A DNA stretch of 32,000 bases, taken from contig NC_010296.1 in the NCBI RefSeq assembly GCF_000010625.1, forward strand, positions 210,001-242,000, in the 5' to 3' direction. Every line of letters begins with the position of its first letter. Within the stretch, counting starts at the first letter, position 1. The stretch comes from Microcystis aeruginosa NIES-843 (lineage in GTDB: Bacteria > Cyanobacteriota > Cyanobacteriia > Cyanobacteriales > Microcystaceae). The translations under genes were made by a program, and so were the position numbers. The notes under the pieces were generated by a model. That model did no database searches, had not been told where the DNA came from, and saw only the letters and a list, made by a program, of their open reading frames with translations. Of this stretch, positions 8,406 through 31,755 are shown one piece after another.

Positions 8406-8490
8406 CCACTCCCCCTCTCCTAACAATCGACTGCTAAGATCGAACAGAGCGATCGATCTCTCGCTCCCACGATACCTGATAAAACTATCT

Positions 8491-10047: not shown

Positions 10048-10052
10048 AGAGA

Positions 10053-10243
10053 TGGGGAGATAGGGAAGTGGGGAAATGGGGGAAGTGGGGAAGTGGGGAA
10101 GTGGGGGAAGTGGGGAAGTGGGCGAATTTCAACTAAAACCCCATCACCCCCCGCAACGCGCACGCAGTGACCACCCCAACACCCCAACACCCTAAAACCC
10201 CAACACCCTAAAACCCTAACACCCTAACACCCAAAACCTAAAA
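10053..10243. repeat. G-rich octamer array (GGGGAAGT-like, ~10053-10127) followed by C-rich octamer array (CCCyAAmA, ~10171-10243)
   Basis: Read directly. Together they fill almost the whole gap between the two M16 genes. Confidence 0.85.
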
Positions 10244-10254
10244 TAAATATAATC

Positions 10255-12381: not shown

Positions 12382-14823
12382 ATGATGCTACTACAAGATG
12401 TTGCGAGAACCTCTAGAGAACAAGCATTAATTCTGTGGTTTGAAGAAGTAGACAGCAAAGACGTGGGATTAGTCGGTGGGAAAAACTCCTCATTAGGCGA
12501 AATGATCCAACAATTAACCCCGAAAGGGATTAATGTCCCCACAGGATTCGCCACCACCGCTTACGCTTACCGTCACTTTGTCGAAAAAGCCGGACTAGAC
12601 GCACAATTAAGACAAATTTTCCAAGATTTAGACGAAAACGATGTCCAAAACTTGCAAGAAAAAGGTAAACAAGCACGCACATTAATTCTCAATACACCGT
12701 TCCCCGATGATTTAAGTCATGCGATCGCTATTGCCTATCGCCGACTCTGTGAACGTTATGGCGATGATCTCTATCATTCCATAGATGTGGCCGTTCGCTC
12801 AAGCGCCACTGCCGAAGACTTACCAGAAGCGAGTTTTGCCGGACAACAGGAAACCTATCTCAACGTGCAAGGGGTAAGGGGAGTTTTAGAAGCTTGCCAT
12901 AAATGTTTTGCCTCTTTATTCACCGATCGCGCTATTTCCTACCGTCATCATAACGGTTTCGATCACTTTGCCGTCGCCCTTTCCGTCGGTGTCCAAAAAA
13001 TGGTGCGTTCAGATCTAGCCACCTCCGGGGTGATGTTTTCCATCGATACGGAAACAGGGTTCAAAAATGCCACTTTAATCACGGCAGCCTACGGTTTAGG
13101 GGAAAATGTCGTGCAAGGAGCCGTTAACCCCGACGAATATCTGGTTTTTAAACCCACTCTTAAAAACGGTTACAAACCCATCCTCGACAAACGCCTCGGC
13201 AGTAAAGCCATCAAGATGATCTACGATGATGGAGGATCGCGTCTAACCAAGAATATCCGAGTTAACAAGCTAGAACAGGATCAATTCTGCATTAGTGACC
13301 AAGAAATCCTCACTTTAGCCCGTTGGACGACCCAAATCGAGGAACATTACTCGCAAGTGCGCGGAACCTACACCCCCATGGACATCGAATGGGCAAAAGA
13401 TGGGATCACGGGAGAACTCTTTATCGTTCAGGCGCGTCCAGAAACCGTACAATCGCAAAAAGCAGCTAATATCCTTAAATCCTACGAAATTAAGCAAAGA
13501 AGTCAAGTTTTAGCGGTGGGACGGAGTGTAGGTGCGGCAATCGGTCAAGGAAAAGCCAGAGTCATCCTCAGTGTAGACAAAATCAACAACTTTAAACCGG
13601 GAGAAGTTCTCGTCACCAATCGCACGGATCCCGACTGGGAACCGATTATGAAACAAGCAAGCGCGATCGTTACTAATCAGGGTGGTCGTACTTGCCATGC
13701 CGCTATTATCGCACGAGAAATGGGCATTCCGGCGATCGTGGGTTGCAATAATGCCACGGAAACGATTAAAACCGGTCAGGAAGTCACCGTTTGCTGTGCG
13801 GAGGGGGATGAAGGGAAAGTTTACCTCGGATTGCTACCCTTTGAAATTATTGAAACTCCCCTGGACAATTTGCCCCAAACTCGGACAAAAATCCTCATGA
13901 ATATCGGTAATCCCGAAAAAGCCTTCGCTTTTGCCGATATTCCTGCTCAAGGGGTCGGTTTAGCGCGTCTAGAGTTTATTATCGCTAACCATATTCAGGC
14001 CCACCCCAGCGCCTTGCTGAAATTCCACGAATTGGAAGAAGGAGACGTAAAAGACCAAATCGCCGAATTAACCAAACACTACGAGGATAAACCCCAATTT
14101 TTCGTCGATAAATTGGCCCGGGGAATTGCCATGATTGCAGCCGCATTCTACCCCAAAGATGTAATTGTGCGGATGTCCGATTTTAAATCCAATGAATACG
14201 CTAATTTATTGGGTGGCAAACCCTTTGAACCCAAGGAAGAAAACCCGATGATCGGTTGGCGCGGCGCTTCCCGTTATACTGATCCTAATTATCGCGAGGC
14301 TTTCGCTTTGGAATGTCGGGCGCTGAAAATGGTACGGGAAGAAATGGGATTAACTAATGTGATTCCGATGATTCCTTTCTGTCGTACTCCCGAAGAAGGG
14401 ATGAGAGTCCTCGAAGAAATGGCGAAAAATGGTCTCGAACGCGGGGTTAATGGTTTGCAAGTTTATGTGATGTGTGAGTTACCAAGTAATGTAATTCTTG
14501 CCGACCAATTTGCTCAGGTGTTTGACGGATTTTCGATCGGTTCTAATGATTTGACCCAATTAACCTTAGGATTAGATCGGGATTCTGCCCTAGTTGCCCA
14601 TCTTTTTGATGAACGGAATGAGGGAGTTAAACGCATGGTGAAAATGGCCATTGAAACCGCTAAAGCCCAAAATCGCAAAATCGGTATCTGTGGTCAAGCT
14701 CCCAGTGATTATCCCGAATTTGCTCAATTTTTAGTGGAATTAGGCATCGATTCTATCAGTCTTAATCCTGATTCTGTCCTCAAGACTTTATTGATGGTGG
14801 CAGCAGTGGAGCAAGGACAATAG
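12382..14823 (+). CDS. ppsA: phosphoenolpyruvate synthase (pyruvate, water dikinase)
   Basis: 813 aa. N-terminal ATP-grasp (VGGKNSSLGEM), phosphohistidine swivel motif (GGRTCHAAIIAREMGIPAIVG), C-terminal PEP-utilising domain (GSNDLTQLTLG). Confidence 0.92.
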   Translation: MMLLQDVARTSREQALILWFEEVDSKDVGLVGGKNSSLGEMIQQLTPKGINVPTGFATTAYAYRHFVEKAGLDAQLRQIFQDLDENDVQNLQEKGKQARTLILNTPFPDDLSHAIAIAYRRLCERYGDDLYHSIDVAVRSSATAEDLPEASFAGQQETYLNVQGVRGVLEACHKCFASLFTDRAISYRHHNGFDHFAVALSVGVQKMVRSDLATSGVMFSIDTETGFKNATLITAAYGLGENVVQGAVNPDEYLVFKPTLKNGYKPILDKRLGSKAIKMIYDDGGSRLTKNIRVNKLEQDQFCISDQEILTLARWTTQIEEHYSQVRGTYTPMDIEWAKDGITGELFIVQARPETVQSQKAANILKSYEIKQRSQVLAVGRSVGAAIGQGKARVILSVDKINNFKPGEVLVTNRTDPDWEPIMKQASAIVTNQGGRTCHAAIIAREMGIPAIVGCNNATETIKTGQEVTVCCAEGDEGKVYLGLLPFEIIETPLDNLPQTRTKILMNIGNPEKAFAFADIPAQGVGLARLEFIIANHIQAHPSALLKFHELEEGDVKDQIAELTKHYEDKPQFFVDKLARGIAMIAAAFYPKDVIVRMSDFKSNEYANLLGGKPFEPKEENPMIGWRGASRYTDPNYREAFALECRALKMVREEMGLTNVIPMIPFCRTPEEGMRVLEEMAKNGLERGVNGLQVYVMCELPSNVILADQFAQVFDGFSIGSNDLTQLTLGLDRDSALVAHLFDERNEGVKRMVKMAIETAKAQNRKIGICGQAPSDYPEFAQFLVELGIDSISLNPDSVLKTLLMVAAVEQGQ

Positions 14824-15166: not shown

Positions 15167-16753
15167 CTATCCATTAGTCGGATCTTTCTTAACAAAAAGA
15201 GAAGAAACTTAAAAAAAGGGGAAACGATTGATAGGTATAGTTTTGAAAGAAGGAATTAAGGTGGAGGTAAGCAAAAAAATGGAGAAATGGGCAGCCCAAG
15301 AATTACAGTATGCAGACCTAGGGGACACCAGAAGAAAGAAAAGGTTAATCAGTATCGTGGAAAACTTGGCCAGTCAACCTAGTACAAGTGTGCCACAAGC
15401 TTCAGGAAATCTAGCCGCAGCGAGTGCCACCTACGACTTTTGGAATTCCCCCTATTTTCACCCCTCAGATATAATTGCCGCCCAGGCCAAAAGTACAGTA
15501 GAAAGAATCAAAGAACATCCAATAGTTTTGGCAGTGCAAGACACAACAAGTTTAGACTTTACGACGCAAAAAGCCAAAAAAGGCATGGGTTATCTAGATT
15601 ATAAAAAATCCTTTGGTCTCAAAGTTCATACCACCTTAGGAGTGTCCCCAGTCGGAATACCTTTAGGACTGATTAATCAATATGTCTGGGCAAGAGAAGA
15701 AAAGAATTTAGGGATTGCCAAGCAACGCAAAAAAAGAGAAACCCAAGAAAAAGAAAGTCAAAGATGGTTAGATTCTTTGTCAGAAACACAACAACAGATA
15801 CCCGAAGATATTCAAGTAGTAACAATCGGAGATTGTGAGGCAGACATATTTGATTTATTTGCCCAATCAAGAAGTCCTAACTCTCATTTATTAATTCGAG
15901 GAACTCATAACCGAAAAGTTAACTATCTCGAAGACAAGCAAAGGTCAGGGCATTCAGAGCCTAAATATTTACATCAATCCATCAGAGAAATAAAAGCCTG
16001 TGGGACCTTAGATGTGCAAGTAAAACGCAATCCTAATCACGAGGCTAGACTAGCTAAACTAACAGTTAGATTTGCCAGTTTTGAAATACAAGTACCTAGC
16101 CATCACTCCAAGGCGACCCCTCGTCAACCGGTCAAATTACAGGTAATTTTAGCTGAAGAAGAAAATCCGCATAGCGGAGTTAATCCTATCAGTTGGCTGC
16201 TCTTAACTAGCCTAGACATTAGTAGCTTTGAATCAGCGATAACCTGTGTGCGCTGGTATAGTTATCGCTGGTTAATAGAACGCTATCATTTTGTTTTAAA
16301 AAGTGGTTGTGGATTAGAAAAACTGCAATTAGAAACGGGTAGGAGAATTGAGATGGCCTTAGCTACCTATTCAATTGTAGCTTGGAGATTACTTTGGTTA
16401 ACCTATCAAGCACGCTTACACGGAGAGGAGAGTTGTGAAAGTTTTTTGGAAGAACATGAATGGCAATCTTTGTGTGCCACTATTCATAAAAAGAGTCCGC
16501 CACCTGAAAAGCCGCCCTCCTTTCGAGAAGCGGTCAGAATGATTGCTTCTCTTGGGGGGTTTTTAGGTAGAAAAGGTGACGGTGAACCTGGTGTTAAAAC
16601 TATTTGGTTGGGACTGCGAAGGTTACATGATATCAGCCAGACTTGGAAACTATCTCATCAAATTAGTCCCCCTATAGAACCCCCTTGAGCCATCTGGCAC
16701 ACTTTTCTCTTTTTGTCAAATTTTATGTTAAGAAAGATGTGACTAATGGATAG
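15167..16753 (+). mobile_element. IS4-family insertion sequence (1587 bp) with ~28-bp imperfect IRs and a 9-bp target duplication CTTGATAAG
   Basis: Left end CTATCCATTAGTCGGATCTTTCTTAAC; reverse complement of the right end CTATCCATTAGTCACATCTTTCTTAAC. The direct repeat CTTGATAAG sits at 15158-15166 and 16754-16762. Confidence 0.85.
15279..16688 (+). CDS. IS4-family DDE transposase
   Basis: Tn5/IS4-like N-terminus (ADLGDTRRKKRL) and an exact Y-x2-R-x3-E-x6-K signature (YSYRWLIERYHFVLK). ATG at 15279 follows GGTGGAGG; the track ORF starts at an upstream TTG. Confidence 0.85.
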   Translation: MEKWAAQELQYADLGDTRRKKRLISIVENLASQPSTSVPQASGNLAAASATYDFWNSPYFHPSDIIAAQAKSTVERIKEHPIVLAVQDTTSLDFTTQKAKKGMGYLDYKKSFGLKVHTTLGVSPVGIPLGLINQYVWAREEKNLGIAKQRKKRETQEKESQRWLDSLSETQQQIPEDIQVVTIGDCEADIFDLFAQSRSPNSHLLIRGTHNRKVNYLEDKQRSGHSEPKYLHQSIREIKACGTLDVQVKRNPNHEARLAKLTVRFASFEIQVPSHHSKATPRQPVKLQVILAEEENPHSGVNPISWLLLTSLDISSFESAITCVRWYSYRWLIERYHFVLKSGCGLEKLQLETGRRIEMALATYSIVAWRLLWLTYQARLHGEESCESFLEEHEWQSLCATIHKKSPPPEKPPSFREAVRMIASLGGFLGRKGDGEPGVKTIWLGLRRLHDISQTWKLSHQISPPIEPP

Positions 16754-16862: not shown

Positions 16863-19241
16863 ATGGACGATAAAACCACAAAGCCAGAAGCATCCGAATC
16901 TGAAGAGAAAAAAGAATCAGATTTTGAACAGGAAAGTAAACAGGCTGAAGTTTGGACGGGAAAAATCACTGCTTTTGTTGCCCATCAACTCCGAACCTCC
17001 GCTCCTTCCCTTCCAATTGTCGGGGGTAGCATTACAGGCATCTTAACTTGGCTTAGTCAACATGACACGGTTAAGGCGATTATTGTCGGGGGAGTCACCT
17101 TTATCGTCACGGGCTTTTTTACCTAAGGATCAGCCTGGAGTCAAGGGTTTTTAGAAACAGCAAGAACCAAAGGTAAAAATCATGGTAAAGGTACAGCCTT
17201 AAGCTTTTTTGTTTGGCTAGACAAAGGACTGGAAAAAATACGTTGGCAATTAGCCAATCCTGACGGGAAATATTTAATTAAATTACGGGATTCAGATTGT
17301 CGTTATGATGATATTGAAGGGATTGAAGATGCAATCTTTGGTTTTTCTACTCCGGAACTAGAAGAAATTTTTATTAATTTGGATCTGAGTCAATTAGAAC
17401 TGCGCTCAGAAGAAGAGTCTAAAGGTACGGGGGATGATATTTGGGATTTATTGCGACGGGCTAAAAAGAGGACAAATTTACGGTTGTTAATTCTGGCTCC
17501 TGGTGGACGAGGAAAAACAACTTTATTGCGTCATTTAGCCTATAACTACGCTCTAAAACAACCGAAACAAAATGCACCTTTTTTAATTCCTGTCTTTTTA
17601 CGTTTACGGAGATGGCAGGAAGTGATTACCACCACAGAAGGATTAGATTTACCGACTTTAATTGAGCGACATCTTAAACAAGATATTTCTCAAGAATTAG
17701 ATTTACCTCAGAACTGGGCTAAAAGTCATTTAACCCGTCAGCGAATGTTAGTGATGTTTGATGGTTTTGATGAAGTTAAACCCGAATATGCCGAAAAAGT
17801 CAGTCAATGGATTGGCAAACAGTGGCATGATTTTCGCCAAAACTATTTTATTTTAACCTCTCGTCCCAAAGGCTATCAAGCGTTTCGCTCTGAGCATAAA
17901 CCTCGGCAAAAGGTGTTTATTAATGAATTTACCGATAAAAATATTCGGGATTTTGTGTATAAATGGTATTTCTGGCAAGAGCAGGAAACCAGAGTTAGCA
18001 GAAGTTTAAAAGCTAAACAAGAAGCTGCCGACAATAAAGCAAAGGATTTAATTAATCAGTTATTTGCTCTCGATGATTCCGAGGAAAGTTCTACTCTATT
18101 AGCCTTGGCGAGAAATCCCTTAAATCTGAATATGATAGTACAGTTACATCGGGCAAACTTTGGCTCGGGACAAAAATTACCTCAGCAACGAGTGGATTTA
18201 TTTCGCCGAATTTTTGATCTGCAATTGATCACTCGCCCTCAAGCTAGGGGCATTGATATGATTTTAGATAATAATGAGGAAAATCATCGTCAACGGGTAT
18301 TACAACAATTAGCCCTGAAAATGGGAAATACAACCACGATTGAATATTCGGAATTACTGAGTTCTATACAAAATTTTATTCAGGAATTGGGTTATCCTGA
18401 AAGCACTTCGGCTAAGGATTTTGTAGAGCGGTTAATTCATGTGAGCGAGTTAATTTTGAAAAGGGATGAATACTATGAGTTTGCCCATAATTTTTTTCAA
18501 TCCTATTTAATTGCTTTGGAAGTTAAACGGTTAAAGCAGGAAAATTTACTCTGGGAAAATTGGGAGCAAAATCTCTGGTACGAGGCTTGTATTATGTATG
18601 CCACTTTATTGATTAATCCGACTGATTTTATTGTGTATTTCTATAATAAAGAAGATAATCCTAAAGCTCAGGGATTAGCGGAGCGATGTTATCGAGAATT
18701 ACCTGTTAAAAAACGTCGAGGTTTGGAATTTTTAGAACAAAAACGACAGACTTCTCTCTTTACCCAACTAGAAACCTATCTGAAAAATGGCCAATGGCGC
18801 GAAGCCGATGAGGAAACGGCGCGGTTAATGTTGTTAATTGCTAAAAGGGAAGATGAAGGCTGGCTAGATGAAGAAAGCATTAACAACTTTCCCTGTGAAG
18901 AGTTACGCACGATTGATAAGCTCTGGGTAGATAATAGCGGCGGCAAATTTGGCTTTTCTGTGCAGAAAAAAGTCTGGCTGGATTGCGGTGGTGTCCCAGG
19001 GAAGTACGATTATGAGGTGTATGAAAAATTTGCCGACGAGGTGGGTTGGCGCAGGGGCGGAGACTGGTTGAGCTATGATCAGCTAACTTTTTTATTAGAT
19101 GGTAGTAAACACGCACACCTACCTCACCTGATATATGGTTGGGATATAAAAGAGTGGGTAGATCGAGGGGTAGAAGTTAGAATCTCTTTTCTCGCGCAGC
19201 GACTTGTAACCTGTAATATATCACAGACTTATACATCTTAA
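16863..19241 (+). pseudogene. NACHT (STAND) NTPase with a C-terminal GUN4-like domain, interrupted by one in-frame TAA at 17124-17126
   Basis: The 16863-17126 and 17379-19241 ORFs share a frame. The 84 codons between them are open and contain no ATG/GTG/TTG. Walker A APGGRGKTTLL, Walker B LVMFDGFDEV. C-terminus WREADEETARLML...FPCEELRTIDKLWVDNSGGKFGFSVQKKVW...VGWR matches the GUN4 porphyrin-binding domain. Confidence 0.7.
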
Positions 19242-19952: not shown

Positions 19953-21374
19953 GGCTCTTCGGGAATTGTTATGCAAATAATTAACTTAAAATAAAATTCG
20001 ATGAGAGCGCCTACGCTCAAAAGTAGCTGAAATCCATACAGGGAAGGACTTAAGGCACAAACAGGTTAATACCAAAAGATAGACAATTGAGTTAAGATTT
20101 GATATAATAGCCAAAAACGAGATTATTTTACTTATGATACTTGACAAATTTTTGAACCTAAAAGGAACCTGTATTCAAGGCTATCTACACCTAGAAAATA
20201 TCGGTATAGTTTGCCGAATCGAATCGAAAAATCAAAAAGCAACCTGTCCTCGTTGTGGGTTAGAGAGCGATAAACTCCACCAAAATCATCGACATTTAGT
20301 CAAAGATTTACCAATCTCAGGTCAACCAGTATACCTACAAGTTAATCGTCGTCAATTTAAGTGCGATAATTGTCAGAGACCCTTTAGCGAAGAGTTAGAT
20401 TTTGTCGCCAAGAAACGAACCTATACGAAAAGACTAGCCGCAAATATACTCGAACAATTAAAAGAAGGAGATATTTTAAATGTTAGTCGAATAAATGACG
20501 TAACGGAAGAAGAGATTCAAAGAATGATAGAGGACATCGCCGAAGAAATTACAGAGCCAGACCTATCGGAATTAAAAAGACTAGGAATTGATGAAATCGC
20601 TCTAGTCAAAGGACAAAAAAATTACTGTGCGGTTTTAGTAAATTTAGATACGGGAAAACTAATAGCTATTCTAGAGAAGCGAACACAAGAAGAGTTGAGA
20701 GAAACGCTTACGGGCTGGGGAAAAGAGGTGTTAGAGCAAATTGAAGAAGTGAGCATAGACCTTTGGTTGCCTTATAAAAATTTGGTGAAAGAATTGATGC
20801 CATCGGCCGAAGTAGTCGCCGATAGATTCCATGTAATGAAACAAATTAATCAAGAGTTAGACGAACAGAGAAGAGCAGAAAAAAGAGCCGTAGAAGCGCA
20901 GAAAAATAAAAAACAGAAAGCAGAAAAAGAAGCCAAGCTAGAAGTTTTAAAGCGAAGTAAATATAGCCTGTTAAAAAATGAAGAAGATTTAACGGAACCC
21001 CAAAAAATTAAACTAGAAGCTATCAAAGAAAAATTCCCAAATTTGAAAAAGATGCAGGAATTAAAGGAAGAATTTAGAAAGATTTATGAAACCTCAGAGA
21101 ATCCGACAGAGGGAATGCTATCCATCTCGGAATGGTTGGCAAAATCCTCCAGTGTTTTTACCAAGAGTTGTCAAACAATCCGAAACTGGTTTGGAGAAAT
21201 AATTAGTTATTTCGAGCGAAGGACAACGAATGGGGTGGTCGAAGGAATCAACAATAAACTTAAACTAATAAAACGGAGAGGCTATGGCTTTAGAAACTTT
21301 CGGAATTTTTGGGTTAGAAGTATGTTATCTTGGCATCTTGTATGTTGATTTAGCATAAAGGGTAACGAAGAGCC
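19953..21374 (+). mobile_element. ISL3-family insertion sequence (1422 bp) with GGCTCTTCG terminal IRs and an 8-bp target duplication CCAAAAAG
   Basis: Left end GGCTCTTCGGGAATTG; reverse complement of the right end GGCTCTTCGTTACCC. Direct repeat at 19945-19952 and 21375-21382. Confidence 0.85.
20134..21348 (+). CDS. ISL3-family transposase
   Basis: N-terminal zinc-finger pattern (CPRCG...CDNCQ), DDE region (GIDEIALVKGQKNY...VSIDLW...VADRFHV) and C-terminal NGVVEGINNKLKLIKRRGYGFRNF. Confidence 0.9.
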   Translation: MILDKFLNLKGTCIQGYLHLENIGIVCRIESKNQKATCPRCGLESDKLHQNHRHLVKDLPISGQPVYLQVNRRQFKCDNCQRPFSEELDFVAKKRTYTKRLAANILEQLKEGDILNVSRINDVTEEEIQRMIEDIAEEITEPDLSELKRLGIDEIALVKGQKNYCAVLVNLDTGKLIAILEKRTQEELRETLTGWGKEVLEQIEEVSIDLWLPYKNLVKELMPSAEVVADRFHVMKQINQELDEQRRAEKRAVEAQKNKKQKAEKEAKLEVLKRSKYSLLKNEEDLTEPQKIKLEAIKEKFPNLKKMQELKEEFRKIYETSENPTEGMLSISEWLAKSSSVFTKSCQTIRNWFGEIISYFERRTTNGVVEGINNKLKLIKRRGYGFRNFRNFWVRSMLSWHLVC

Positions 21375-21429: not shown

Positions 21430-22698
21430 TTACAATCTCGGTTTCTGAACAGTCCACTGGGTTACGGGGGCCATGGCTTTCCAACCTAAAAACTTGCCGA
21501 CCGGTTCGGCTTTTTCAATGCCAATTCGCAGCAGTTCCCCTCCTAATTTACTATGCCATTGCAAGAGGACTAATTCGCTTTCAATTGTAACAGTGTTGGC
21601 AACAAGACGACCCCCGGGGCGCAGGGCTAACCAACAGGTTTCCAATAGGTGGGGTGTGGTGATACCGCCACCGATAAAAATAGCATCCGGTTGCGGTAAA
21701 TCTTCCAGGGCGCTCGGTGCGATTCCGGCGACGATTTGCAGGTGGGGCGTTCCCAGGGCGGCGGCATTATCGGCAATGTATTGTAATCTGGTGGGATGAT
21801 GTTCGATCGCAATAGCCTGGCAACGGCGATCGCTACGCAGCCACTCAATGGCAATGGAACCACAACCTGCCCCCACATCCCAGAGCAATTGTCCGGGTAG
21901 GGGAGCCAATGTACTCAGAGTGATAGCACGAACTTCTCTTTTTGTCAACTGTCCGTCATGATGGTAAGCAGAATCCGGCAGTCCGGGAAGGCGCGGCGCC
22001 AGGGTGGGGGGATGGGAGGAGATGCAGCTAATGGCGATGACATTTAGATCCGCCAGATATGTAAACTGCCAATCGTTGGCGATGCCTTCAATGTGGCGTT
22101 CTAGGGTTCCCCCTAGATGTTCTAAAACCGTGATGCGACTCTCGCCAAAACCTCCCTCCCTGAGAAGCCGAGCAGCGATCGCTGGAGTCTGGGCATCGGC
22201 ACTCAGTACCAGCAGTTTAGCGCCGGGATAAAGCACCCCATTCAACCAAGCCGGAGGCCGACCGCACAAACTCAAAGTTTCCACTTCACTCAGAGGCCAA
22301 CCCAAACGACTACAGGCAAGACTGAAGGCAGAAGGAGAGGGAATAATCGTCATTTCCTCAAGGGGAATCTGACGGGTGAGGGTGACACCAATTCCGTAGC
22401 ACATGGGATCACCACTGGCCAAAACACAGACGGATTGACCACGACGGCGGATAATCTCGTTAACAGAGTCTTGGATGGGAGAAGTCCAGAGCAGTTTTTG
22501 CCGTTGATCCTCTGAGGGTAACATTGCCAGATGACGTTCACCACCGACAATAACTGATGCTAAAGAAAGCAGACTTCGCCCTACCGAACTTAACCCTTCT
22601 AAGCCATCTTCACCAATTCCTATGATCGATAGCCATTTCGACTGACAATTGCGATCCGCCATATTAAAAAAAATCGCTACTATTTCATTATCTGCCAT
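21430..22698 (-). CDS. cobL: precorrin-6Y C5,15-methyltransferase (decarboxylating), fused CbiE/CbiT type
   Basis: N-terminal tetrapyrrole methylase half (WLSIIGIGEDGLEGLS...VLASGDPMCYGIG) and C-terminal SAM-MTase half (LWDVGAGCGSIAIEW). Alternative ATG at 22662. Confidence 0.85.
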   Translation of the reverse strand: MADNEIVAIFFNMADRNCQSKWLSIIGIGEDGLEGLSSVGRSLLSLASVIVGGERHLAMLPSEDQRQKLLWTSPIQDSVNEIIRRRGQSVCVLASGDPMCYGIGVTLTRQIPLEEMTIIPSPSAFSLACSRLGWPLSEVETLSLCGRPPAWLNGVLYPGAKLLVLSADAQTPAIAARLLREGGFGESRITVLEHLGGTLERHIEGIANDWQFTYLADLNVIAISCISSHPPTLAPRLPGLPDSAYHHDGQLTKREVRAITLSTLAPLPGQLLWDVGAGCGSIAIEWLRSDRRCQAIAIEHHPTRLQYIADNAAALGTPHLQIVAGIAPSALEDLPQPDAIFIGGGITTPHLLETCWLALRPGGRLVANTVTIESELVLLQWHSKLGGELLRIGIEKAEPVGKFLGWKAMAPVTQWTVQKPRL

Positions 22699-22761: not shown

Positions 22762-23408
22762 ATGACCACCACCGCCGATGACGTTTGGAGATTATTAGCC
22801 GAATTAGTAGAAGCTCAAAAAGAGACAGAAAGATGCTTTCAAGAAACCGAGCGACGCTTTCAAGAAACCGAGCGGATTCTCAAAGAACAATCTTTAGAAA
22901 CCGAGCGACGCTTTCAAGAAACCGAGCGGATTCTCAAAGAACAATCTTTAAAAACTGATCGCCAAATTACCAGAGTCAGTCAAGAAATTGGTAATCTTGG
23001 CGGTAAATGGGGACGTTTTGTCGAAAATATGGTAGCCCCAGCTTGTGAGACTTTATTTTTAAATCGTCAGATTCCCGTACATCAAGTTAGTCAAAGAGTC
23101 AGAAAACGTCTCGACGGTAAAACCTTAGAAATTGATGTGTTAGTAACTAATGAAAATCATGTGCTAGTAGTGGAAGTCAAAAGTAGTTTAAGTGTAGATG
23201 ATGTCAAAGAATTAATCAAGAATCTAACAGAATTTAGACAATTTTTCCAGAATATAACCACAAACAATTATATGGGGCAGTAGCAGGCATTGAAATCGAA
23301 GAAGGAGCAGATAAATATGCCTATCGTCAAGGTTTATTTGTCTTGGCACAAAGGGGTGAAAATGTAGCGATTCTTAACGATACTGAGTTTCAACCAAAAA
23401 CTTGGTAG
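22762..23408 (+). pseudogene. tandem paralogue 1: coiled-coil / PD-(D/E)XK-like protein, frameshifted by a 1-nt deletion in a T tract
   Basis: Nearly identical to copies 2 and 3. T5CC at 23242-23248 versus T6CC in copy 2 truncates the ORF at 23283. The out-of-frame remainder to 23408 still matches copy 2. Confidence 0.75.
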
Positions 23409-23465
23409 GGGCTTTAAAAACAAGATGTAATCAGGTTATTGTCAAGTTAATTCAGAGGAAAAATT

Positions 23466-24080
23466 ATGACCACCACCGCCGATGACGTTTGGAAATTATT
23501 AGCCGAATTAGTAGAAGCTCAAAAAGAGACAGAAAGATGCTTTCAAGAAACCGAGCGACGCTTTCAAGAAACCGAGCGACGCTTTCAAGAAACCGAGCGT
23601 ATTCTCAAAGAACAATCTTTAAAAACCGATCGCCAAATTACCAGAGTCAGTCAAGAAATTGGTAATCTTGGGGGTAAATGGGGTCGTTTTGTCGAAAATA
23701 TGGTAGCCCCAGCTTGTGAGACTTTATTTTTAAATCGTCAGATTCCCGTACATCAAGTTAGTCAAAGAGTCAGAAAACGTCTCGACGGTAAAACCTTAGA
23801 AATTGATGTGTTAGTAACTAATGAAAATCATGTGCTAGTAGTGGAAGTCAAAAGTAGTTTAAGTGTAGATGATGTCAAAGAATTAATCAAGAATCTAACA
23901 GAATTTAGACAATTTTTTCCAGAATATAACCACAAACAATTATATGGGGCAGTAGCAGGCATTGAAATCGAAGAAGGAGCAGATAAATATGCCTATCGTC
24001 AAGGTTTATTTGTCTTGGCACAAAGGGGTGAAAATGTAGCGATTCTTAACGATACTGAGTTTCAACCAAAAACTTGGTAG
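23466..24080 (+). CDS. tandem paralogue 2: N-terminal ETERRFQ heptad coiled coil plus a C-terminal PD-(D/E)XK-like domain (204 aa)
   Basis: Intact ORF with its own AGAGGA SD. LEIDVLV...LVVEVKS gives a D...E-x-K pattern typical of the restriction-endonuclease fold. The function call is inference. Confidence 0.7.
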   Translation: MTTTADDVWKLLAELVEAQKETERCFQETERRFQETERRFQETERILKEQSLKTDRQITRVSQEIGNLGGKWGRFVENMVAPACETLFLNRQIPVHQVSQRVRKRLDGKTLEIDVLVTNENHVLVVEVKSSLSVDDVKELIKNLTEFRQFFPEYNHKQLYGAVAGIEIEEGADKYAYRQGLFVLAQRGENVAILNDTEFQPKTW

Positions 24081-24137
24081 GGGCTTTAAAAACAAGATGT
24101 AATCAGGTTATTGTCAAGTTAATTCAGAGGAAAAATT

Positions 24138-24707
24138 ATGACCACCACCGCCGATGACGTTTGGAAATTATTAGCCGAATTAGTAGAAGCTCAAAAAGAG
24201 ACAGAAAGATGCTTTCAAGAAACCGAGCGCCGCTTTCAAGAAACTGATCGCCAAATTACCAGACTCAGTCAAGAAATTGGTAATCTTGGGGGTAAATGGG
24301 GTCGTTTTGTCGAAAATATGGTAGCCCCAGCTTGTGAGACTTTATTTTTAAATCGTCAGATTCCCGTACATCAAGTTAGTCAAAGAGTCAGAAAACGTCT
24401 CGACGGTAAAACCCTAGAAATTGATGTGTTAGTAACTAATGAGAATCATGTGCTAGTAGTGGAAGTCAAAAGTAGTTTAAGTGTAGATGATGTCAAAGAA
24501 TTAATCAAGAATCTAACAGAATTTAGGCAATTTTTCCCAGAATATAACCACAAACAATTATATGGGGCAGTAGCAGGCATTGAAATCGAAGAAGGAGCAG
24601 ATAAATATGCCTATCGTCAAGGTTTATTTGTCTTGGCACAAAGGGGTGAAAATGTAGCGATTCTTAACGATACTGAGTTTCAACCGAAAACGTGGTATAA
24701 TATTTAA
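24138..24707 (+). CDS. tandem paralogue 3: same family, shortest coiled coil (189 aa)
   Basis: Intact ORF, near-identical to copy 2 except for missing heptad modules and a different last 3 codons. Confidence 0.7.
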   Translation: MTTTADDVWKLLAELVEAQKETERCFQETERRFQETDRQITRLSQEIGNLGGKWGRFVENMVAPACETLFLNRQIPVHQVSQRVRKRLDGKTLEIDVLVTNENHVLVVEVKSSLSVDDVKELIKNLTEFRQFFPEYNHKQLYGAVAGIEIEEGADKYAYRQGLFVLAQRGENVAILNDTEFQPKTWYNI

Positions 24708-26318: not shown

Positions 26319-26945
26319 ATGGAATACATTAAGAATGGTGAGGAAATTTACCGCAAATCTTTTGCTATTATTCGGGCTGAAACTAACTGGGAAAATCTCC
26401 CCGATGATTTAGCTCCTGTGGCGGTTCGTCTAATTCATTCCTGTGGGATGACAGACATAACAAAAGATTTAGAAGCATCACCGGACGCGGTTAAAATCGG
26501 ACGAAATGCCCTCGCTGGGGGTGCAGCAATTCTCTGTGATTCTCAAATGGTCGCTAATGGCATTACCAAAGCGCGTTTACCTAAAGATAATCCGATTATT
26601 TGTACCCTCAATCATCCAGAAGTAACCGAGTTAGCACGGCAAATTAATAATACCCGCTCCGCTGCCGCTTTAGAACTTTGGCGACCTCATTTAGCTGGAG
26701 CAGTGGTGGCCATTGGTAATGCACCAACCGCACTTTTTCGCCTACTAGAATTGCTCGATCAAAATGTAGATAAACCGGCTTTGATTTTAGGCTTTCCCGT
26801 GGGATTTGTGGGAGCGGCAGAGTCGAAAATAGAATTAGCAACTAATAGTCGTGGCGTGCCATTTATTACCCTGCACGGACGTAGGGGAGGCAGCGCAATC
26901 GCAGCAGCAGCAGTCAATGCTTTAGCAAAAGAGAACGAATTATGA
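26319..26945 (+). CDS. cobH: precorrin-8X methylmutase
   Basis: 208 aa with the conserved VRLIHSCGM and GNAPTAL motifs. Confidence 0.9.
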   Translation: MEYIKNGEEIYRKSFAIIRAETNWENLPDDLAPVAVRLIHSCGMTDITKDLEASPDAVKIGRNALAGGAAILCDSQMVANGITKARLPKDNPIICTLNHPEVTELARQINNTRSAAALELWRPHLAGAVVAIGNAPTALFRLLELLDQNVDKPALILGFPVGFVGAAESKIELATNSRGVPFITLHGRRGGSAIAAAAVNALAKENEL

Positions 26946-27646
26946 ATAAATTAGGCAAACTTTATGGATTAGGAATCGGGCCCGGCGATCCCGAATTGTT
27001 GACGCTCAAAGCACACCGAATTCTCACAACTGTTCCGGTAATTGCTTATCCTACCTTAGAAAGTGGCAAAGTTTTGGCACGGGCAATTGTGTCGGATTTT
27101 ATCCGTCCCGAGCAGATAGAAATTCCCATGCCTTTACCTTTTAGTGTCGAGCGCAGTTCTCAACCTCATTATGATATTGCCGCCGAAAATATCGCCGAAC
27201 AGTTAAAATTAGGTCTAGATGTGGCGGTGCTATGTGTGGGCGATCCGATGTTGTATGGCACGTTTATGTATATTTTTAATCGCTTGTGTGATCGCTTTTC
27301 CATTGAAGTCGTGCCGGGTATTTCTTCAGTGATGGCAAGTGCAGCAATGCTGGGTGTACCTATCACTTATCGAAATGACGTATTTAGTATTATGCCCGCT
27401 ACTTTAGAGGCGGAAATATTGCGGGATCGCCTAGCCTTTATCGATGCAGCGGCGATTATTAAATTGGGCAGACATTTCGCTAAAGTTCGCAATATTCTCG
27501 AGGAATTAGGATTATTAGAACGCGCCCTCTACATCGAACGAGCAACCTTACCCAATCAGCAAATTATTCCGATTACAGAAGTCGATCCAGAGGCTGCTAC
27601 TTACTGGTCATTAATTCTGATTCCTAGTAAAACTAAACCTCAATAA
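26942..27646 (+). CDS. cobI: precorrin-2 C20-methyltransferase
   Basis: LYGLGIGPGDPELLTLKA N-terminus and GDPMLYGTF motif. 4-nt overlap with cobH. Confidence 0.9.
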   Translation: MNKLGKLYGLGIGPGDPELLTLKAHRILTTVPVIAYPTLESGKVLARAIVSDFIRPEQIEIPMPLPFSVERSSQPHYDIAAENIAEQLKLGLDVAVLCVGDPMLYGTFMYIFNRLCDRFSIEVVPGISSVMASAAMLGVPITYRNDVFSIMPATLEAEILRDRLAFIDAAAIIKLGRHFAKVRNILEELGLLERALYIERATLPNQQIIPITEVDPEAATYWSLILIPSKTKPQ

Positions 27647-27781
27647 CTCTATAGACACTAAGTTAAATCTTCTATCCCCTACCTGACAGAACCTATAGGG
27701 TTTAGATAATATTATGAAAATGTCTTTTCTTCGTTGCTTTTTTTGTTGCATAGGAGGCTATATACAGCGTTTCTCGGATTG

Positions 27782-27936
27782 ATAAGTAGGTAGGCGTTAA
27801 AAATTATCAGATGCCCCCCTTATCAAGGGGGGATTAAGGGGGGATCCCCCCGCCTATCGGCACCCCCCTTATCAAGGGGGGCAGGGGGGATCGAACCTAA
27901 AATCTATTTTTAATTTAATTATAACCAGCTACTTAA
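27782..27936. mobile_element. MITE-like element, copy C (inverted relative to copies A and B; two C6-TTATCAA-G6 palindromes)
   Basis: Its reverse complement is collinear with 5131-5236 (TIR, A/T-rich block, GATCCCCCCTGCCCCCC) and with 15089-15166 plus 16763-16800. Confidence 0.65.
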
Positions 27937-27983
27937 GGTAATCTATTTTATTCTCCGTTCTCTGTCACCTAAAAATAACTACC

Positions 27984-30641
27984 ATGTCCGATTCTCCTGA
28001 ATCTATCCGCAATACTAGCGTCAGCGATCAAGCTACTAATAATGATGCTCTCGGATTTGAGCCTTATGTAATAGCGATCGCTGAATTTTTGTTGCATCAG
28101 CAGACACAACCACCCCTAACTTTATCGGTTGAGGGAGAGTGGGGTAGTGGCAAGTCTTCTTTTATGAAAATGTTAGAGGAATATTTACGAAAAAAGGGAG
28201 GTCGGACGGTTTGGTTTAATGCTTGGCGACACGATAAGGCGGAGTCGGTATGGGCAGCCTTTGCGCTGTCTTTTATTAAGCAGATTTCTACGCCCAAAAA
28301 TTGGCGAGATTTGCCTCGAATTATCCTAGTACACTTTAAATTACAATTATTGCGTTTTAACTTAGAAAAAGGCTTGTTTGAATTAATTAAAGCTTTACCA
28401 GTAATAATTTTTGTGATTTGTGCCTCAATTGCCATTCCCTTTATTTTAATCGGTTATGGCGTTGAAGGAATTAACGAATTAATCAGAGCAACAACCTCTC
28501 AAGATGTTTTTTGGAGCAAAATTAATTCAGTTTTTAAATTATTATTTACTGCGGTCGGTGTCACCTTATCAGGAGCGGGGATTTTCGCTGGTATTAAGAG
28601 TTTATTGAGAAATTTTCAAAGGTTACTCCAAAACCCCAAAAACAACCTAATTAAATATATAGAAGCCCCAGATTATAAAAAACAATCGGCATTTGTAGAA
28701 GAATTTCATGAAGATTTTGCTAAAATTGTCGATGCCTATGTTGGCAATGATCGGGTATATGTATTTATTGACGATTTAGATCGTTGTGAACATCCAAAAT
28801 CAGCGGACTTGATGCAAGCGATTAATTTGATGATTGCTGATGATCCTTCAGTGGTGTTTATTTTAGGAATGGACAGAGAAAAAGTAGCCGCTAGTTTAGC
28901 GGTAAAATACGAAAACATTCTCAAGTATTTACCGTCGGAAACCACAGAAATTGATCCTGATATTTTAGCGAGACGTAGTGCTAATAAAGGGTTAGCTTAT
29001 GGTTATACCTTTATTGAAAAGTTTGTCCAGCTTCCCTTTTTAGTTCCCCAACCATCCCGGTCAGATTTTGAGCGTTTTTTGATTCAGCTTGCTACTTCAA
29101 CTCCTCCCAATTTACAGCCAGCTAAACCTCGTTTTACATTTTTTCAGTCATTCTGGGGTAAGTTTAAGTTAGCTTTACCCTGGAGAAATAATTCGCAAAA
29201 GCATCTCACTTCTGCAACAAGTAATCAGACAAGTGATTTAAAAAACTTGTCTCTAGATAATCCTTCGATAGAATCTGAACAAACCGAAAAAGAGAAAGCA
29301 CGAGCATCTGTAATTAAGCGATTAGAAGCGATTCAAGTCAACAAATCTGATAATAGAGATTCCCAAACAGTGCGGAATATCATTATGATGGTGGCTCCCG
29401 CATTGGATTACAATCCGCGACGGATTAAACACTTTATCAATGTCTTTCGTCTCAAGGTTTATATCGCTAATGAAACTGGTTTATTTTTTGAGGAGCGAGA
29501 TGAGAATGATAATTTGTTAGATCCTTCTTTGACTTTTGAACAGTTAGGTAAATTTACTGCCATTAGTTTAAAATGGCCATTGTTATTATCAGATTTAGAA
29601 AATGATAAGCGAATTTTAGCAAAACTAGAAGAATTTGCACTAGATGAAGAAAAAACCAAAGAATATGAAGAGTCGCTTCGCTATTGGGGTAGTCATATTA
29701 AGCTAAAAGCTTTAATGGCTTACGGTCATGACAAATTGGCAGCTAACTCTAAATTTAGCTTGGCAGAGGTAAATGTTGATAAATTATTACAAGTATCACC
29801 CAAGGTAATTCGGTTAGATAATGAGCCTATTCAACAAAAACAAATTTCCGATATTGAAATTATCCAAAAGATTACCTCATTGCCTCATATTAAAATTAGC
29901 CAAAATATTACCTCATTGCCTCCAGACTTTCACTTAGAAATGGTGGATATACCCGCCGGTAAATTTAACATGGGTTCTAATCAGTATGAAGATGAAAAAC
30001 CGATACATGAAGTAATTGTGCCAGCATTTCAGATAGGCAAATATCCCGTAACCCAAGCACAGTATCAAGCGGTGATGGGATATAATCCTTCGATAGCGGC
30101 ATATTATCCTTTAAAGTTTTCAGGAAATCCCCAGAACCCGGTAGAATCCATTAGTTGGTTTAATGCTCAAGCTTTTTGTGAAAACCTGAGCCAGTTAACT
30201 GGAAAAAACTACCGTTTGCCTACAGAAACAGAATGGGAATATGCCTGTCGCGCTGGTACAGAAACCCTATTTAGTTTTGGCGATGATAAAGATAAACTAG
30301 GAGATTATGCCTGGTTTCGTGCTAATTCAAATAATACAACCCATCCTGTTGGGGAAAAACAGCCTAATCCTTGGGGAATTTATGATATGCACGGCAATGT
30401 TTGGGAATGGTGTGCTGATGAATATCATGAAAGTTATGTTAATAAACCAGAAAATATTAAAGAAAATGGCAGTATTCCATGGTATGGTGGTTATTTAAGT
30501 ACCAAACCATCACTTCGTGGCGGCGCTTGTGACTCCTATCCCGGGCTTTGCCGTTCCGCATATCGCGGCGACAGCGATGTTCACGGCCAGGGACACGGTT
30601 TTCGTGTTGTGTGCGATCTCCCCCAATCAGTTAACAGTTAA
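27984..30641 (+). CDS. KAP-family P-loop NTPase (two inserted TM helices) fused to a C-terminal FGE-sulfatase/SUMF1-type domain
   Basis: Walker A GEWGSGKSSF. Hydrophobic helices at about aa 135-165 and 185-205. Walker B-like VYVFIDDLDRC. C-terminal motifs YPVTQAQY, SWFNAQAFC, RLPTETEWEYACRAG, NPWGIYDMHGNVWEWC, GFRVVC. Confidence 0.8.
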   Translation: MSDSPESIRNTSVSDQATNNDALGFEPYVIAIAEFLLHQQTQPPLTLSVEGEWGSGKSSFMKMLEEYLRKKGGRTVWFNAWRHDKAESVWAAFALSFIKQISTPKNWRDLPRIILVHFKLQLLRFNLEKGLFELIKALPVIIFVICASIAIPFILIGYGVEGINELIRATTSQDVFWSKINSVFKLLFTAVGVTLSGAGIFAGIKSLLRNFQRLLQNPKNNLIKYIEAPDYKKQSAFVEEFHEDFAKIVDAYVGNDRVYVFIDDLDRCEHPKSADLMQAINLMIADDPSVVFILGMDREKVAASLAVKYENILKYLPSETTEIDPDILARRSANKGLAYGYTFIEKFVQLPFLVPQPSRSDFERFLIQLATSTPPNLQPAKPRFTFFQSFWGKFKLALPWRNNSQKHLTSATSNQTSDLKNLSLDNPSIESEQTEKEKARASVIKRLEAIQVNKSDNRDSQTVRNIIMMVAPALDYNPRRIKHFINVFRLKVYIANETGLFFEERDENDNLLDPSLTFEQLGKFTAISLKWPLLLSDLENDKRILAKLEEFALDEEKTKEYEESLRYWGSHIKLKALMAYGHDKLAANSKFSLAEVNVDKLLQVSPKVIRLDNEPIQQKQISDIEIIQKITSLPHIKISQNITSLPPDFHLEMVDIPAGKFNMGSNQYEDEKPIHEVIVPAFQIGKYPVTQAQYQAVMGYNPSIAAYYPLKFSGNPQNPVESISWFNAQAFCENLSQLTGKNYRLPTETEWEYACRAGTETLFSFGDDKDKLGDYAWFRANSNNTTHPVGEKQPNPWGIYDMHGNVWEWCADEYHESYVNKPENIKENGSIPWYGGYLSTKPSLRGGACDSYPGLCRSAYRGDSDVHGQGHGFRVVCDLPQSVNS

Positions 30642-30693
30642 CAGTTAACTTTTATCAGTTGGGGGCCACTATTGGCGCAATAATATTATTGTA

Positions 30694-30714
30694 GGGGCGA
30701 ATTGCATTCGCCCT
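30694..30714. other. GC-rich hairpin GGGGCGAAT-TGC-ATTCGCCC(T), about 55 nt downstream of the KAP-FGE stop
   Basis: 8 perfect base pairs plus a G-T wobble, 3-nt loop, no strong T run after it. Confidence 0.4.
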
Positions 30715-30968
30715 CTTTGAATAACTTCTACTGCTCACCTATAGGTGAGGGAAAGTCACAAATAGGAGATGCAGCCGATAATTTTCTGGAAATATAGTCT
30801 TTAAACCCTTGTCTGGCAAAACTACAAGGAATGATAAGCAATGATTATCACACAAAGTCGAGGAGAGCCATAGGGGGAGCCTGAGAATGGAGATCGCTGT
30901 AGTTAGCCATCACCGCTTTTTATGGTTACTTTAATGTTAGAATCGAATCACTTCTTTTAGGTTTTGCT

Positions 30969-31208
30969 ATGCGTGCGATTGAAACCACTGGTATCCTCAA
31001 TACCCAGGGACAAATTCAACTTGATCATCCTATTCCCCAAGAAAAAGATCGGTTTGTACGCGTCATTCTTTTGATGTCGGAGGATGAACTGAACGAAAAA
31101 AACTGGCTAGATGCCGTTTCCCATAACCCTAGCTTTGCTTTTCTGCAAGATACCGAAGAAGATATTTATACCCTTAACGATGGACAACCTGTAACTAATG
31201 AAGGGTAA
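30969..31208 (+). CDS. putative antitoxin of the downstream MazF/PemK-like gene
   Basis: 79-aa ORF. Its stop overlaps the start of the toxin-like ORF (ATG at 31198). Assignment is by position and size only. Confidence 0.45.
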   Translation: MRAIETTGILNTQGQIQLDHPIPQEKDRFVRVILLMSEDELNEKNWLDAVSHNPSFAFLQDTEEDIYTLNDGQPVTNEG

Positions 31209-31755
31209 AATTGTATTAATTCAATTTCCCTTCGACGATTTATCTTCCAGTAAGGTTCGTCCTGCTTATTGCCTAACCAATCAAATTGGAGGCTATCAAC
31301 ACATTATCTTTGCCCTAATTAGGGTTTGCTGAAAAAGTTTTTCTTGGGGGCAGGGTGTGGGGTGTGGGGTGTGGGGTGTAGGGTTTTACCGATTTTGAAG
31401 GGGTCAATTACCTAATTTTCAGGGAAAAAGTCCCTGAATTTTCCCCCCGATCACTCCCATATCTGGTACTTTTTGATTGACAAAAACTCTAAAAGTCTTA
31501 ACCAACAAGGGTTTTACCATTATTCAGCCAGCCCTAATTACCAGTCGTATTCCAGAAAATCCCCTTCATACAGATATTATTCTGAGACCAGAAAGTCCAG
31601 ATTTTATGATCAGTGGTCTTCGCCAATCGTCAGCCATCAGACTTGATCATTTAGTAACACTTCGATCTTCACTGATTCAGCGTGAACTAGGCTCATTATC
31701 ATTAAAAACACAAACCTTAATTGTAGATATTTTGTCCGATATTCTACGTTCTTAA
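31198..31755 (+). pseudogene. MazF/PemK-family toxin gene split by a 219-bp MITE insertion
   Basis: N-terminal part 31198-31320 (MKGKIVLIQFPFDDLSSSKVRPAYCL...HIIFALI) and C-terminal part 31540-31755 (TSRIPENPLHTDIIL...SAIRLDHLVTL...) join in frame to a typical ~113-aa PemK-like protein once 31321-31539 is removed. Confidence 0.7.
31321..31539. mobile_element. MITE inserted in the mazF-like gene (ends TAGGGTTTGCTGAA / TTCAGCCAGCCCTA; GCCCTAATT present on both sides)
   Basis: Imperfect TIRs read directly. The 9-nt GCCCTAATT occurs at 31312-31320 and 31531-31539, so the TSD/TIR boundary is ambiguous. Contains a (GGGGTGT)n tract. Confidence 0.6.

Follow-up and report, generated by a model that had tools for sequence, protein, structure and literature searches.

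Is the adenine-poor 3′ end of a cyanobacterial gene a site that is still being hypermutated, or one that was written in the past and has since been inherited unchanged? The question is raised by a 32,000-nucleotide stretch of the Microcystis aeruginosa NIES-843 chromosome (NC_010296.1, positions 210,001 to 242,000; hereafter the window, numbered from its first letter), which contains a gene combining an N-terminal KAP NTPase domain with a C-terminal FGE domain of the C-lectin fold (KAP NTPase-FGE domain gene, hereafter KAP-FGE). An earlier note on this DNA took the last hundred or so nucleotides of the gene, 30516–30617, for a candidate variable region of a diversity-generating retroelement (DGR), served from a distance by a template and reverse transcriptase lying elsewhere. 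The comparisons described below, across Microcystis strains and known DGRs, lead to a different view of its present state. Hypermutation is no longer at work in the cassette, which is a fossil in this sense; it is probably an orphan DGR-type variable region, relict or quiescent, that is kept as stable alleles.

Composition and codon usage of the cassette

Segment 30516–30617 holds 12 A in 102 nt (11.8%) at 61.8% G+C, compared with 31.4% A in the whole gene. Among all 102-nt intervals of the window it belongs to the 0.6% that are poorest in A and to the 0.24% that are richest in G+C, and an A content of 13% or less is reached by only three stretches in these 32 kb. The earlier count of 12 A is correct, but the preceding 90 nt hold 36 A (40%) and not 38. 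The segment begins at codon R845 (CGT GGC GGC), encodes RGGACDSYPGLCRSAYRGDSDVHGQGHGFRVVCD and ends 21 nt ahead of the stop codon (30639–30641), in agreement with the roughly 20 nt given before. The predominance of NNC and NNT codons described at the outset is likewise confirmed, with 29 of the 34 codons ending in C or T as opposed to 442 of 851 (52%) in the rest of the gene (Fisher P = 8e-5).

The Gly/Arg/Cys/Ala-rich peptide itself is responsible for some of this shortage of A, as re-coding the same residues shows. With the gene's own codon usage the expectation is 18.5 ± 2.5 A against 12 observed (P = 0.006), and with 12 other open reading frames (ORFs) of the window added it is 16.7 ± 2.3 (P = 0.025); by the same re-coding, G+C at third codon positions (GC3) amounts to 18/34 against 8.4–12.3 expected. 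Amino-acid content alone explains about two thirds of the depletion, which favours an origin without any DGR. In such a case the segment would be an FGE/C-lectin ligand-binding loop with its G+C supplied by Gly, Arg, Cys and Ala. Diversifying or balancing selection would act on variants that arise by point mutation, by indels and by recombination. The residual codon bias and the GC3 excess (18/34 against about 8–12) speak against that origin. Both the A depletion and the codon bias exceed chance, and the mutational signature, adenine depletion together with NNC/NNT codons at variable positions, is present.

The gene product and its C-lectin fold

By exact-sequence match, the product is BAG00097.1 (WP_012263976.1, UniRef B0JMT3) of M. 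aeruginosa NIES-843; bloom metagenomes such as SRR3140609 and ERZ27268123 contain an identical gene. Its N-terminal half belongs to the KAP family of P-loop NTPases, as indicated by the PF07693 match, the GEWGSGKS P-loop motif and hydrophobic stretches at approximately residues 130–215, the latter two read from the translation. For the C-terminal domain the best PDB match by sequence is TvpA of T. denticola (2Y3C, E = 1.5e-28), with true formylglycine-generating enzymes scoring lower; this closest solved relative is the structural prototype of FGE-type DGR variable proteins and also argues against an origin without a DGR. The catalytic FGE cysteine pair is not kept across orthologous alleles, being absent from SWFHIPVKSRSASR and differing in position between ACDSYPGLCRSAYR and SWCRDPLVCSSAYR. 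A catalytic formylglycine-generating enzyme was consequently rejected, on the grounds that the C-terminal cysteines are unconserved and that TvpA outscores all FGE enzymes.

A nucleotide scaffold shared with genuine template/variable pairs

A scaffold pattern was derived from the positions invariant in eight Microcystis alleles, GGCGG-N31-TCNGCNNNTCG-N25-45-GGNTTTCGNGTTGTG, and run against a one-genome-per-species collection. At least 120 stretches matched, mostly from cyanobacteria with some from planctomycetes and others, and these were used as a calibration set. Among the matches listed there are 24 adenine-rich templates (A 0.23–0.31), translating to GGSWNNNPxNCRSAxRNNNN...GFRVV, and 112 adenine-poor variable regions (A 0.06–0.21); the Microcystis cassettes, with an A fraction of 0.11–0.17, lie inside the range of the latter. 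A DGR-type reverse transcriptase is found 8 kb or less away in 21 of the 120 stretches listed. In 14 cognate template/variable pairs the median is 13.5 adenine-site mismatches and 0 non-adenine mismatches. Homology in real pairs begins 6–15 nt before GGCGG, at the L/R-R-G-G codons, and extends 25–35 nt beyond GTTGTG, into the homing-site tail. The switch in composition at LRGG, which the earlier note had likened to the start of variable regions, does coincide with the point where this homology begins.

The cassette agrees with the DGR scaffold at 25 fixed nucleotides (pattern match 30519–30611), and the C-lectin/FGE fold does carry, at its C-terminal end, a variable region built on the RGG...CRSAxR...GFRVV scaffold. 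The anatomy of a DGR variable region in such a domain is thus supported by Pfam, the TvpA match, the scaffold and the diversity peak described below. Two of these results are difficult to reconcile with an origin without a DGR, namely that the 25 nucleotides, synonymous ones included, are common to DGR pairs of distant cyanobacteria and planctomycetes, and that DGR reverse transcriptases lie so close to a share of the scaffold stretches. None of the 24 collected templates qualifies as cognate, as they differ from the cassette by 12–18 non-adenine mismatches and fit no better than the non-cognate background (median 12). Microcystis is represented among the matches listed by four loci, all KAP-FGE, with no template among them; given that the pattern is too general and that only these four loci were listed, a Microcystis template is not excluded by that scan.

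Allele classes and their stability among Microcystis strains

More than 100 Microcystis orthologue clusters of KAP-FGE exist at 81–92% identity. The gene is chromosomal and syntenic in the genus, with cobalamin genes or an aminotransferase cluster on its 5′ side and a small antitoxin-like ORF, a PemK-type toxin gene and dprA on its 3′ side. In an alignment of 12 Microcystis loci, nucleotide diversity is 0.004–0.09 in the KAP domain, 0.03–0.19 in the C-terminal half and 0.03–0.16 in the FGE domain outside the cassette. It is sharply maximal, at 0.24–0.38, at 30485–30604, with flanks of about 0.04–0.16 and a drop to 0.04 at 30605–30623. The sharp edges of this block coincide with template boundaries, a further point against an origin without a DGR. 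The earlier note had asked whether strain variation is confined to the segment; the segment is indeed the diversity peak of the gene, but variation also reaches upstream, and the cassette is not re-randomised between close relatives.

Approximately seven cassette classes can be distinguished, with lengths of 93, 96 or 99 nt, for example SWCRDPLVCSSAYRGRSVAEICNHDI, SWGSYPVNCRSAVRIGIDADDCDGWL, DFNSYPGLCRSADRYSPDAYLRSDF and, in the window, ACDSYPGLCRSAYRGDSDVHGQGH. They are also unlike at synonymous scaffold positions (TCC/TCA/TCG; CGC/CGA/CGG/CGT; GGT TTT CGT vs GGG TTT CGG). Class lengths differ by one or two codons, and real Microcystis DGRs likewise show one-codon differences between template and variable region.

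Within classes the picture is one of stability. Only 30 core cassette variants occur across 127 distinct full-length orthologues, and where two backbones agree at 98% or more, as they do in 39 pairs, the cassettes are the same in 38. The commonest cassette is found unchanged on 32 backbones with a median identity of 90% and a minimum of 82%, other frequent classes being similar. With so few cassettes on many divergent backbones, the cassette within a class has changed less than the remainder of the protein, which is the opposite of what an active DGR would be expected to produce. NIES-843 and M. viridis NIES-102 share an identical cassette, and those of PCC 9432 and NIES-2520, whose backbones are 93–94% identical to that of the window, differ by one residue. 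Re-randomisation, meaning a cassette that differs between close relatives with the same flanks, was not seen in these comparisons, and the diversity peak lies between allele classes. That differences within a class are single substitutions rather than wholesale re-randomisation is in turn a point in favour of an origin without a DGR.

Search for a template and a reverse transcriptase

An adenine-tolerant search, in which mismatches are allowed at template adenines, recovers the template in three of three positive controls. No template-like copy was found within the 32-kb window, where 22 non-adenine mismatches remain even in the best adenine-tolerant alignment. For 13 cassette alleles, no cognate template was present in 1.16 Mb including 12 Microcystis loci and the three Microcystis DGR loci, only alleles being returned. 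Neither the window nor the 12 Microcystis KAP-FGE loci (7 with 10-kb flanks) contain a reverse transcriptase. The statement that the window holds no template repeat and no reverse transcriptase was therefore borne out. For the genome as a whole, seven reverse transcriptases have been reported in NIES-843, all of the group II intron type (PMC8934634).

In collections of phages and plasmids, blastn found nothing that matches the cassette. No cognate template was found in IMG/VR, a scan which is uninformative because the known Microcystis templates are missing there as well. With a Coleofasciculaceae reverse transcriptase as query, the best 120 matches all came from filamentous cyanobacteria, with no Microcystis among them, and a representative search with the C-lectin domain was dominated by multi-repeat proteins. 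KAP-FGE relatives at 56–61% identity (P0114, P0118, P0120) have no adjoining reverse transcriptase. The earlier note had regarded the lack of a template and reverse transcriptase, coupled with an absence of excess variation among strains, as evidence against its proposal. Only the first half of that pair is observed, in the sequence scanned, and the excess variation is present.

Diversity-generating retroelements of Microcystis

DGR reverse transcriptases have been reported in M. aeruginosa NIES-2549 and NIES-4285 (PMC7517822 Tables S1 and S3; PMC6642488). Three DGR types were recovered from the genus, two of them plasmid-borne (p1FD4, NZ_CP046974.1; NIES-2481 p1, NZ_CP025929.1) and the third from Microcystis sp. 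LE18-22.4A, where the order is Avd, reverse transcriptase, template. On p1FD4 the reverse transcriptase spans 26945–28003, the template is GGSWGNNPNNCRSAIRNNNNRRDNRNNNNGFRVV, and two cis targets differ from it by 14 and 16 adenine-site mismatches with 0 at non-adenine sites. NIES-2481 p1 carries a degraded reverse transcriptase and a related template. Microcystis DGR templates differ from their own targets by 14–16 adenine-site and 0 non-adenine mismatches; every KAP-FGE cassette, set against the same templates, shows 16–22 non-adenine mismatches and 3–11 gap columns. A fixed CGCCGCGAC core is contained in all three recovered templates and is absent from every KAP-FGE cassette. The recovered Microcystis DGR types are not cognate to the KAP-FGE cassette.

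The FD4-type reverse transcriptase, a protein labelled 'MULTISPECIES [Microcystis]', occurs on well over 100 contigs, none larger than 47 kb, and is an accessory element.

Some details of the plasmids are worth recording. The region 25692–38360 of p1FD4 (M. aeruginosa FD4) holds a complete DGR with two targets and two Avd genes, situated inside a VMAP(SAV_2336)-MoxR-TIR locus; Avd is separated from the reverse transcriptase by an IS5 element. At 8834–11319 the same plasmid has a second FGE gene with an Avd gene, the 99-nt variable region of which fits an NIES-2481-type template (13 adenine-site and 1 non-adenine mismatches) only after one codon is removed. On NIES-2481 p1 (8427–8528 and 12823–12924) the variable region differs from the p1FD4 template by 14 adenine-site and 0 non-adenine mismatches, compared with 19 and 8 from the template of its own plasmid, and the neighbouring reverse transcriptase is truncated and unannotated. 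This plasmid appears to hold a decaying DGR, the target of which was written by another template lineage.

The 3′ end of the gene

Genuine cyanobacterial and Microcystis targets end in GFRVV-C-xxx-(R/W)TL-stop, with GGGAGAACTCT followed by TAACCCTTTTTCC; as a consensus, the 3′ element reads GG(G)A(G/C)(A)ACTC, then TA(G/A)CCCTTT.... Compared with the 3′ ends of Crocosphaera, p1FD4 and others, the likeness of KAP-FGE to genuine variable proteins ends after CTCCCC, where a heptamer repeat takes over, so that KAP-FGE lacks the homing-site tail (xxxx-R/W-T-L-stop). Neither IMH (initiation of mutagenic homing) sequence nor 3′ cis element was found there. The GGACTC...TAGCCCTTT element occurs in 0 of 16 Microcystis KAP-FGE cassettes, in 41 of 110 other variable regions and in all cis targets inspected.

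Two hairpins had been pointed out after the segment, and both fold as claimed: CCCCCAA...TTGGGGG at 30620–30666 and GGGCGAAT-TGC-ATTCGCCC at 30695–30713 (DNA fold of 30596–30730, −21.5 kcal/mol, z = −3.85). The centre of the first is a CAGTTAA tandem repeat, which we take to resemble the short tandemly repeated heptamers of cyanobacteria. It is present in about 2 to 6 copies among Microcystis strains, and its copy number alters the C-terminal tail of the protein to P, PQSVNS, PQSVNC or PQSVISWEPPLAQ, each followed by the stop. The second hairpin is probably the end of the transcript and not a DGR element; over 30300–31000 a terminator scan made no consensus call, the T tail being short, and Rfam gave no match. 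The two hairpins were also considered as a DGR cruciform, a candidate that was rejected as the first consists of heptamer repeats that vary among strains, the second is 80 nt further downstream and neither resembles the genuine 3′ element.

Origin of the cassette and competing explanations

The resemblance to genuine variable regions points to retrohoming as the origin of the cassette classes. In past mutagenic retrohoming, an adenine-rich template would have been copied by an error-prone reverse transcriptase into the C-lectin ligand-binding loop, leaving an adenine-poor, G+C-rich cassette of NNY codons on a DGR-specific nucleotide scaffold. In NIES-843 the machinery is reportedly lacking and the 3′ homing signal is missing, and the cassette now behaves as ordinary, vertically inherited coding DNA. 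About seven deeply different classes are kept intact in the Microcystis population and are moved between backbones by homologous recombination. The architecture of the KAP-FGE protein suggests a ligand sensor, and the classes would represent alternative specificities of this putative intracellular or membrane sensor under balancing selection.

Several observations weigh against an inactive, DGR-derived cassette, or against parts of that reading. The absence of a DGR reverse transcriptase from NIES-843 is taken from one published annotation (PMC8934634), and for this strain the template negative covers the window. A metagenome scan for the template-upstream motif joined to the 3′ flank of Microcystis yielded nothing but one more variable-region allele, which contains AGGC by chance. 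No ancestral template was found for any cassette class, and for this reason the DGR origin is inferred from resemblance. The missing 3′ element is weak evidence of inactivity, because about 60% of lone variable-region-like sequences elsewhere also lack the element as defined. The stretch W833–L844, immediately upstream of the core cassette and outside the usual template homology, varies between classes and contains indels within the class of the window; such variation and indels reach beyond the template boundary, and retrohoming does not account for them. Finally, in the class of the window the 3–4 codons just before GFRVV take at least seven states (GQG, VQG, SGR, SRQ, AQG and others), differing at first and second codon positions, with the remaining cassette identical. 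This hot spot could reflect limited recent homing; short 3′-proximal homing tracts or selection on one loop could both fit.

A further reading also invokes retrohoming, but in repeated 'hit-and-run' form, in which DGR-bearing accessory elements, each with a template lineage of its own, rewrote the cassette in trans during a short stay and were then lost, the frozen specificity being kept by selection and shuffled by recombination. Class differences at non-adenine scaffold sites, within a template-sized block, would then be the imprints of different templates. This is a possible but doubtful course of events. The origin without any DGR introduced above is unlikely. Beyond the amino-acid content and the single-substitution differences within classes, it draws on the lack of a template for any class and on the indels and the variation outside the usual template span. 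The residual codon bias, the shared scaffold, the neighbouring reverse transcriptases, TvpA and the edges of the diversity block stand against it.

Improbable, in our estimation, is a gene conversion in which other C-lectin paralogues of Microcystis, namely kinase-, TIR- or peptidase-C-lectin genes, donated their variable regions as the cassette classes. NIES-2549 has 7 C-lectin paralogues and several NIES-843 proteins are among the putative DGR-associated C-lectins (PMC7517822); flanks conserved among paralogues would yield sharp edges, and the cassettes are shuffled among backbones. No paralogue with a KAP-FGE cassette was seen, however, among paralogues sampled unsystematically, the Microcystis scaffold matches among those listed are all KAP-FGE, and many scaffold positions set every class apart from the variable regions on Microcystis plasmids.

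The least probable explanation is the one with which the earlier note began, a working remote target in which a DGR elsewhere in NIES-843 still diversifies 30516–30617 from an adenine-rich template: the variable-region anatomy and scaffold, the remote C-lectin targets documented in cyanobacteria together with the reverse transcriptases of NIES-2549 and NIES-4285 (PMC7517822, PMC6642488), and the hot spot of 3–4 codons would suit it, but the strain is reported to have group II intron reverse transcriptases only (PMC8934634), no cognate template turned up in the window, flanks or three Microcystis DGR loci by a search whose controls succeed, the Microcystis templates misfit at 16–22 non-adenine sites, the homing-site tail is missing, and the cassette has not been re-randomised, being the same in NIES-102, one residue different in PCC 9432 and NIES-2520 despite 93–94% backbones, and identical on backbones that diverge by about 10%.

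Comparison with known systems

Remote variable proteins and 'VP homologues' (VP, variable protein) of cyanobacterial DGRs have been described (Vallota-Eastman et al. 2020, PMC7517822), and in the supplementary list of putative DGR-associated C-lectins Microcystis is the top genus. KAP-FGE is like these proteins in carrying a C-terminal C-lectin/FGE domain on a signalling or NTPase N-terminus and in having a variable-region-like 3′ end far from a reverse transcriptase. Remote targets were assigned in that study at >50% template identity only, with activity untested, whereas the KAP-FGE alleles examined here are stable, and NIES-843 reportedly lacks a DGR reverse transcriptase altogether. In the accessible supplement text, no Microcystis paralogue stands under 'C-lectin & P-loop NTPase' and B0JMT3 / BAG00097 does not appear.

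A second group for comparison is formed by 'antigen sensors' from multicellular bacteria, NTPase-C-lectin proteins that are diversified by DGRs (Doré et al. 2024, PMC10907252; Kaur et al. 2020, PMC7159879). They share with KAP-FGE an NTPase (STAND, sometimes KAP), a single C-terminal C-lectin with a variable region, and a proposed role as conflict-system sensor. Antigen sensors, however, lie in or near DGR loci and are diversified in natural populations, while KAP-FGE has no DGR nearby and fixed alleles.

The DGRs of p1FD4, NIES-2481 p1 and LE18-22.4A come from the same genus, use the C-lectin fold and have the scaffold at GGCGG, TGCCGTTCCGC and GGTTTTCG. Their templates, however, are 99–102 nt long with a fixed RRD-encoding core and the homing tail, in contrast to the window cassette of 93 nt, which lacks RRD and tail and shows 16–18 non-adenine differences. 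Similarly, TvpA has its variable region at the C-terminal end of the fold, as does KAP-FGE, but is a lipoprotein with a cis DGR, unlike the KAP NTPase fusion with its putative membrane helices and no DGR at its locus.

The KAP-FGE locus therefore joins an already described kind, as NTPase-C-lectin DGR targets including KAP are known (PMC7517822, PMC10907252, PMC7159879). The present comparisons add that this cassette persists in Microcystis as several stable alleles, a fossil and not a live target, and that the DGRs recovered from the genus are not cognate to it. Composition alone flags a DGR target here, and the population data show no present diversification, a distinction that matters for surveys counting 'remote targets' by loose template similarity. 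If the classes are frozen products of retrohoming, the locus would be a natural record of C-lectin specificities kept by a bloom-forming cyanobacterium, perhaps directed at phage or other invaders. In that case the allele classes could be used as strain markers and as a start for finding the ligands of KAP NTPase-C-lectin sensors.

Coordinates and other features of the window

Table 1. Position of the KAP-FGE gene, its domains and its 3′ features in the window, with the basis of each assignment.
Feature	Coordinates	Strand	Basis and remarks
KAP NTPase-FGE gene	27984..30641	+	ORF list; Pfam; exact-sequence match; 885 aa product
KAP_NTPase domain, residues 26-311	28059..28916	+	Pfam PF07693, E = 3e-34; the gene's conserved half
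FGE-sulfatase / C-lectin-fold domain, residues 652-876	29937..30611	+	Pfam FGE-sulfatase, E = 3e-48
Variable stretch W833-L844, upstream of the core cassette	30480..30515	+	Protein and codon alignments; diversity 0.16-0.24
Core variable-region-like cassette, R845-H871	30516..30596	+	Composition; scaffold match 30519-30611; diversity peak; few variants
Conserved 3′ scaffold GGTTTTCGTGTTGTGTGCGATCTCCCC (GFRVVCDLP)	30597..30623	+	Diversity 0.04 at 30605-30623; comparison with genuine variable regions
Heptamer tandem repeat (CAGTTAA) x 4.7, spanning the stop codon 30639-30641	30628..30660	.	TRF
G+C-rich hairpin, 8-bp stem, 3-nt loop	30695..30713	.	DNA fold; kept in most Microcystis loci examined

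Other patches of the window that are poor in adenine or thymine and rich in G+C lie at 2752–3020 and 21647–22353, in an RRM_1 RNA-binding protein gene (minus strand) and a tetrapyrrole methylase gene; both genes lack an FGE domain, so that these patches do not count as additional variable regions. Among the KAP-FGE relatives, the 61% identical P0114 (L136 10001–12544; L137 2853–5396) has a called protein truncated before RGG, and three metagenome assemblies, independent of one another, break off inside its variable region or directly behind it. Such assembly breaks would fit real hypervariation in the population of that organism.

Downstream of the gene, an insertion of about 210 bp (~31322–31530) splits the PemK-type toxin gene and carries a (GGGTGTG) x 4.6 repeat at 31353–31384. 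In other strains (L005, L006, L007 and L009) the same 79-aa ORF is followed by an unbroken toxin gene of 112 aa, and about 10 bp are duplicated at the junction of the insertion, which looks like a miniature transposable element. Upstream, at 22762–24707, there are three tandem paralogous small genes of 173, 204 and 189 aa, and scans of the first two gave weak NERD / PD-(D/E)XK-like matches; in other strains this array precedes the cobalamin genes, with variable copy number. Finally, the product of 17379–19241 joins NACHT (STAND NTPase) to a C-terminal GUN4 domain, a combination that is on record for conflict-system effectors of cyanobacteria, and the gene is flanked by Tn5-like and ISL3 transposase genes (15228–16688 and 20134–21348).

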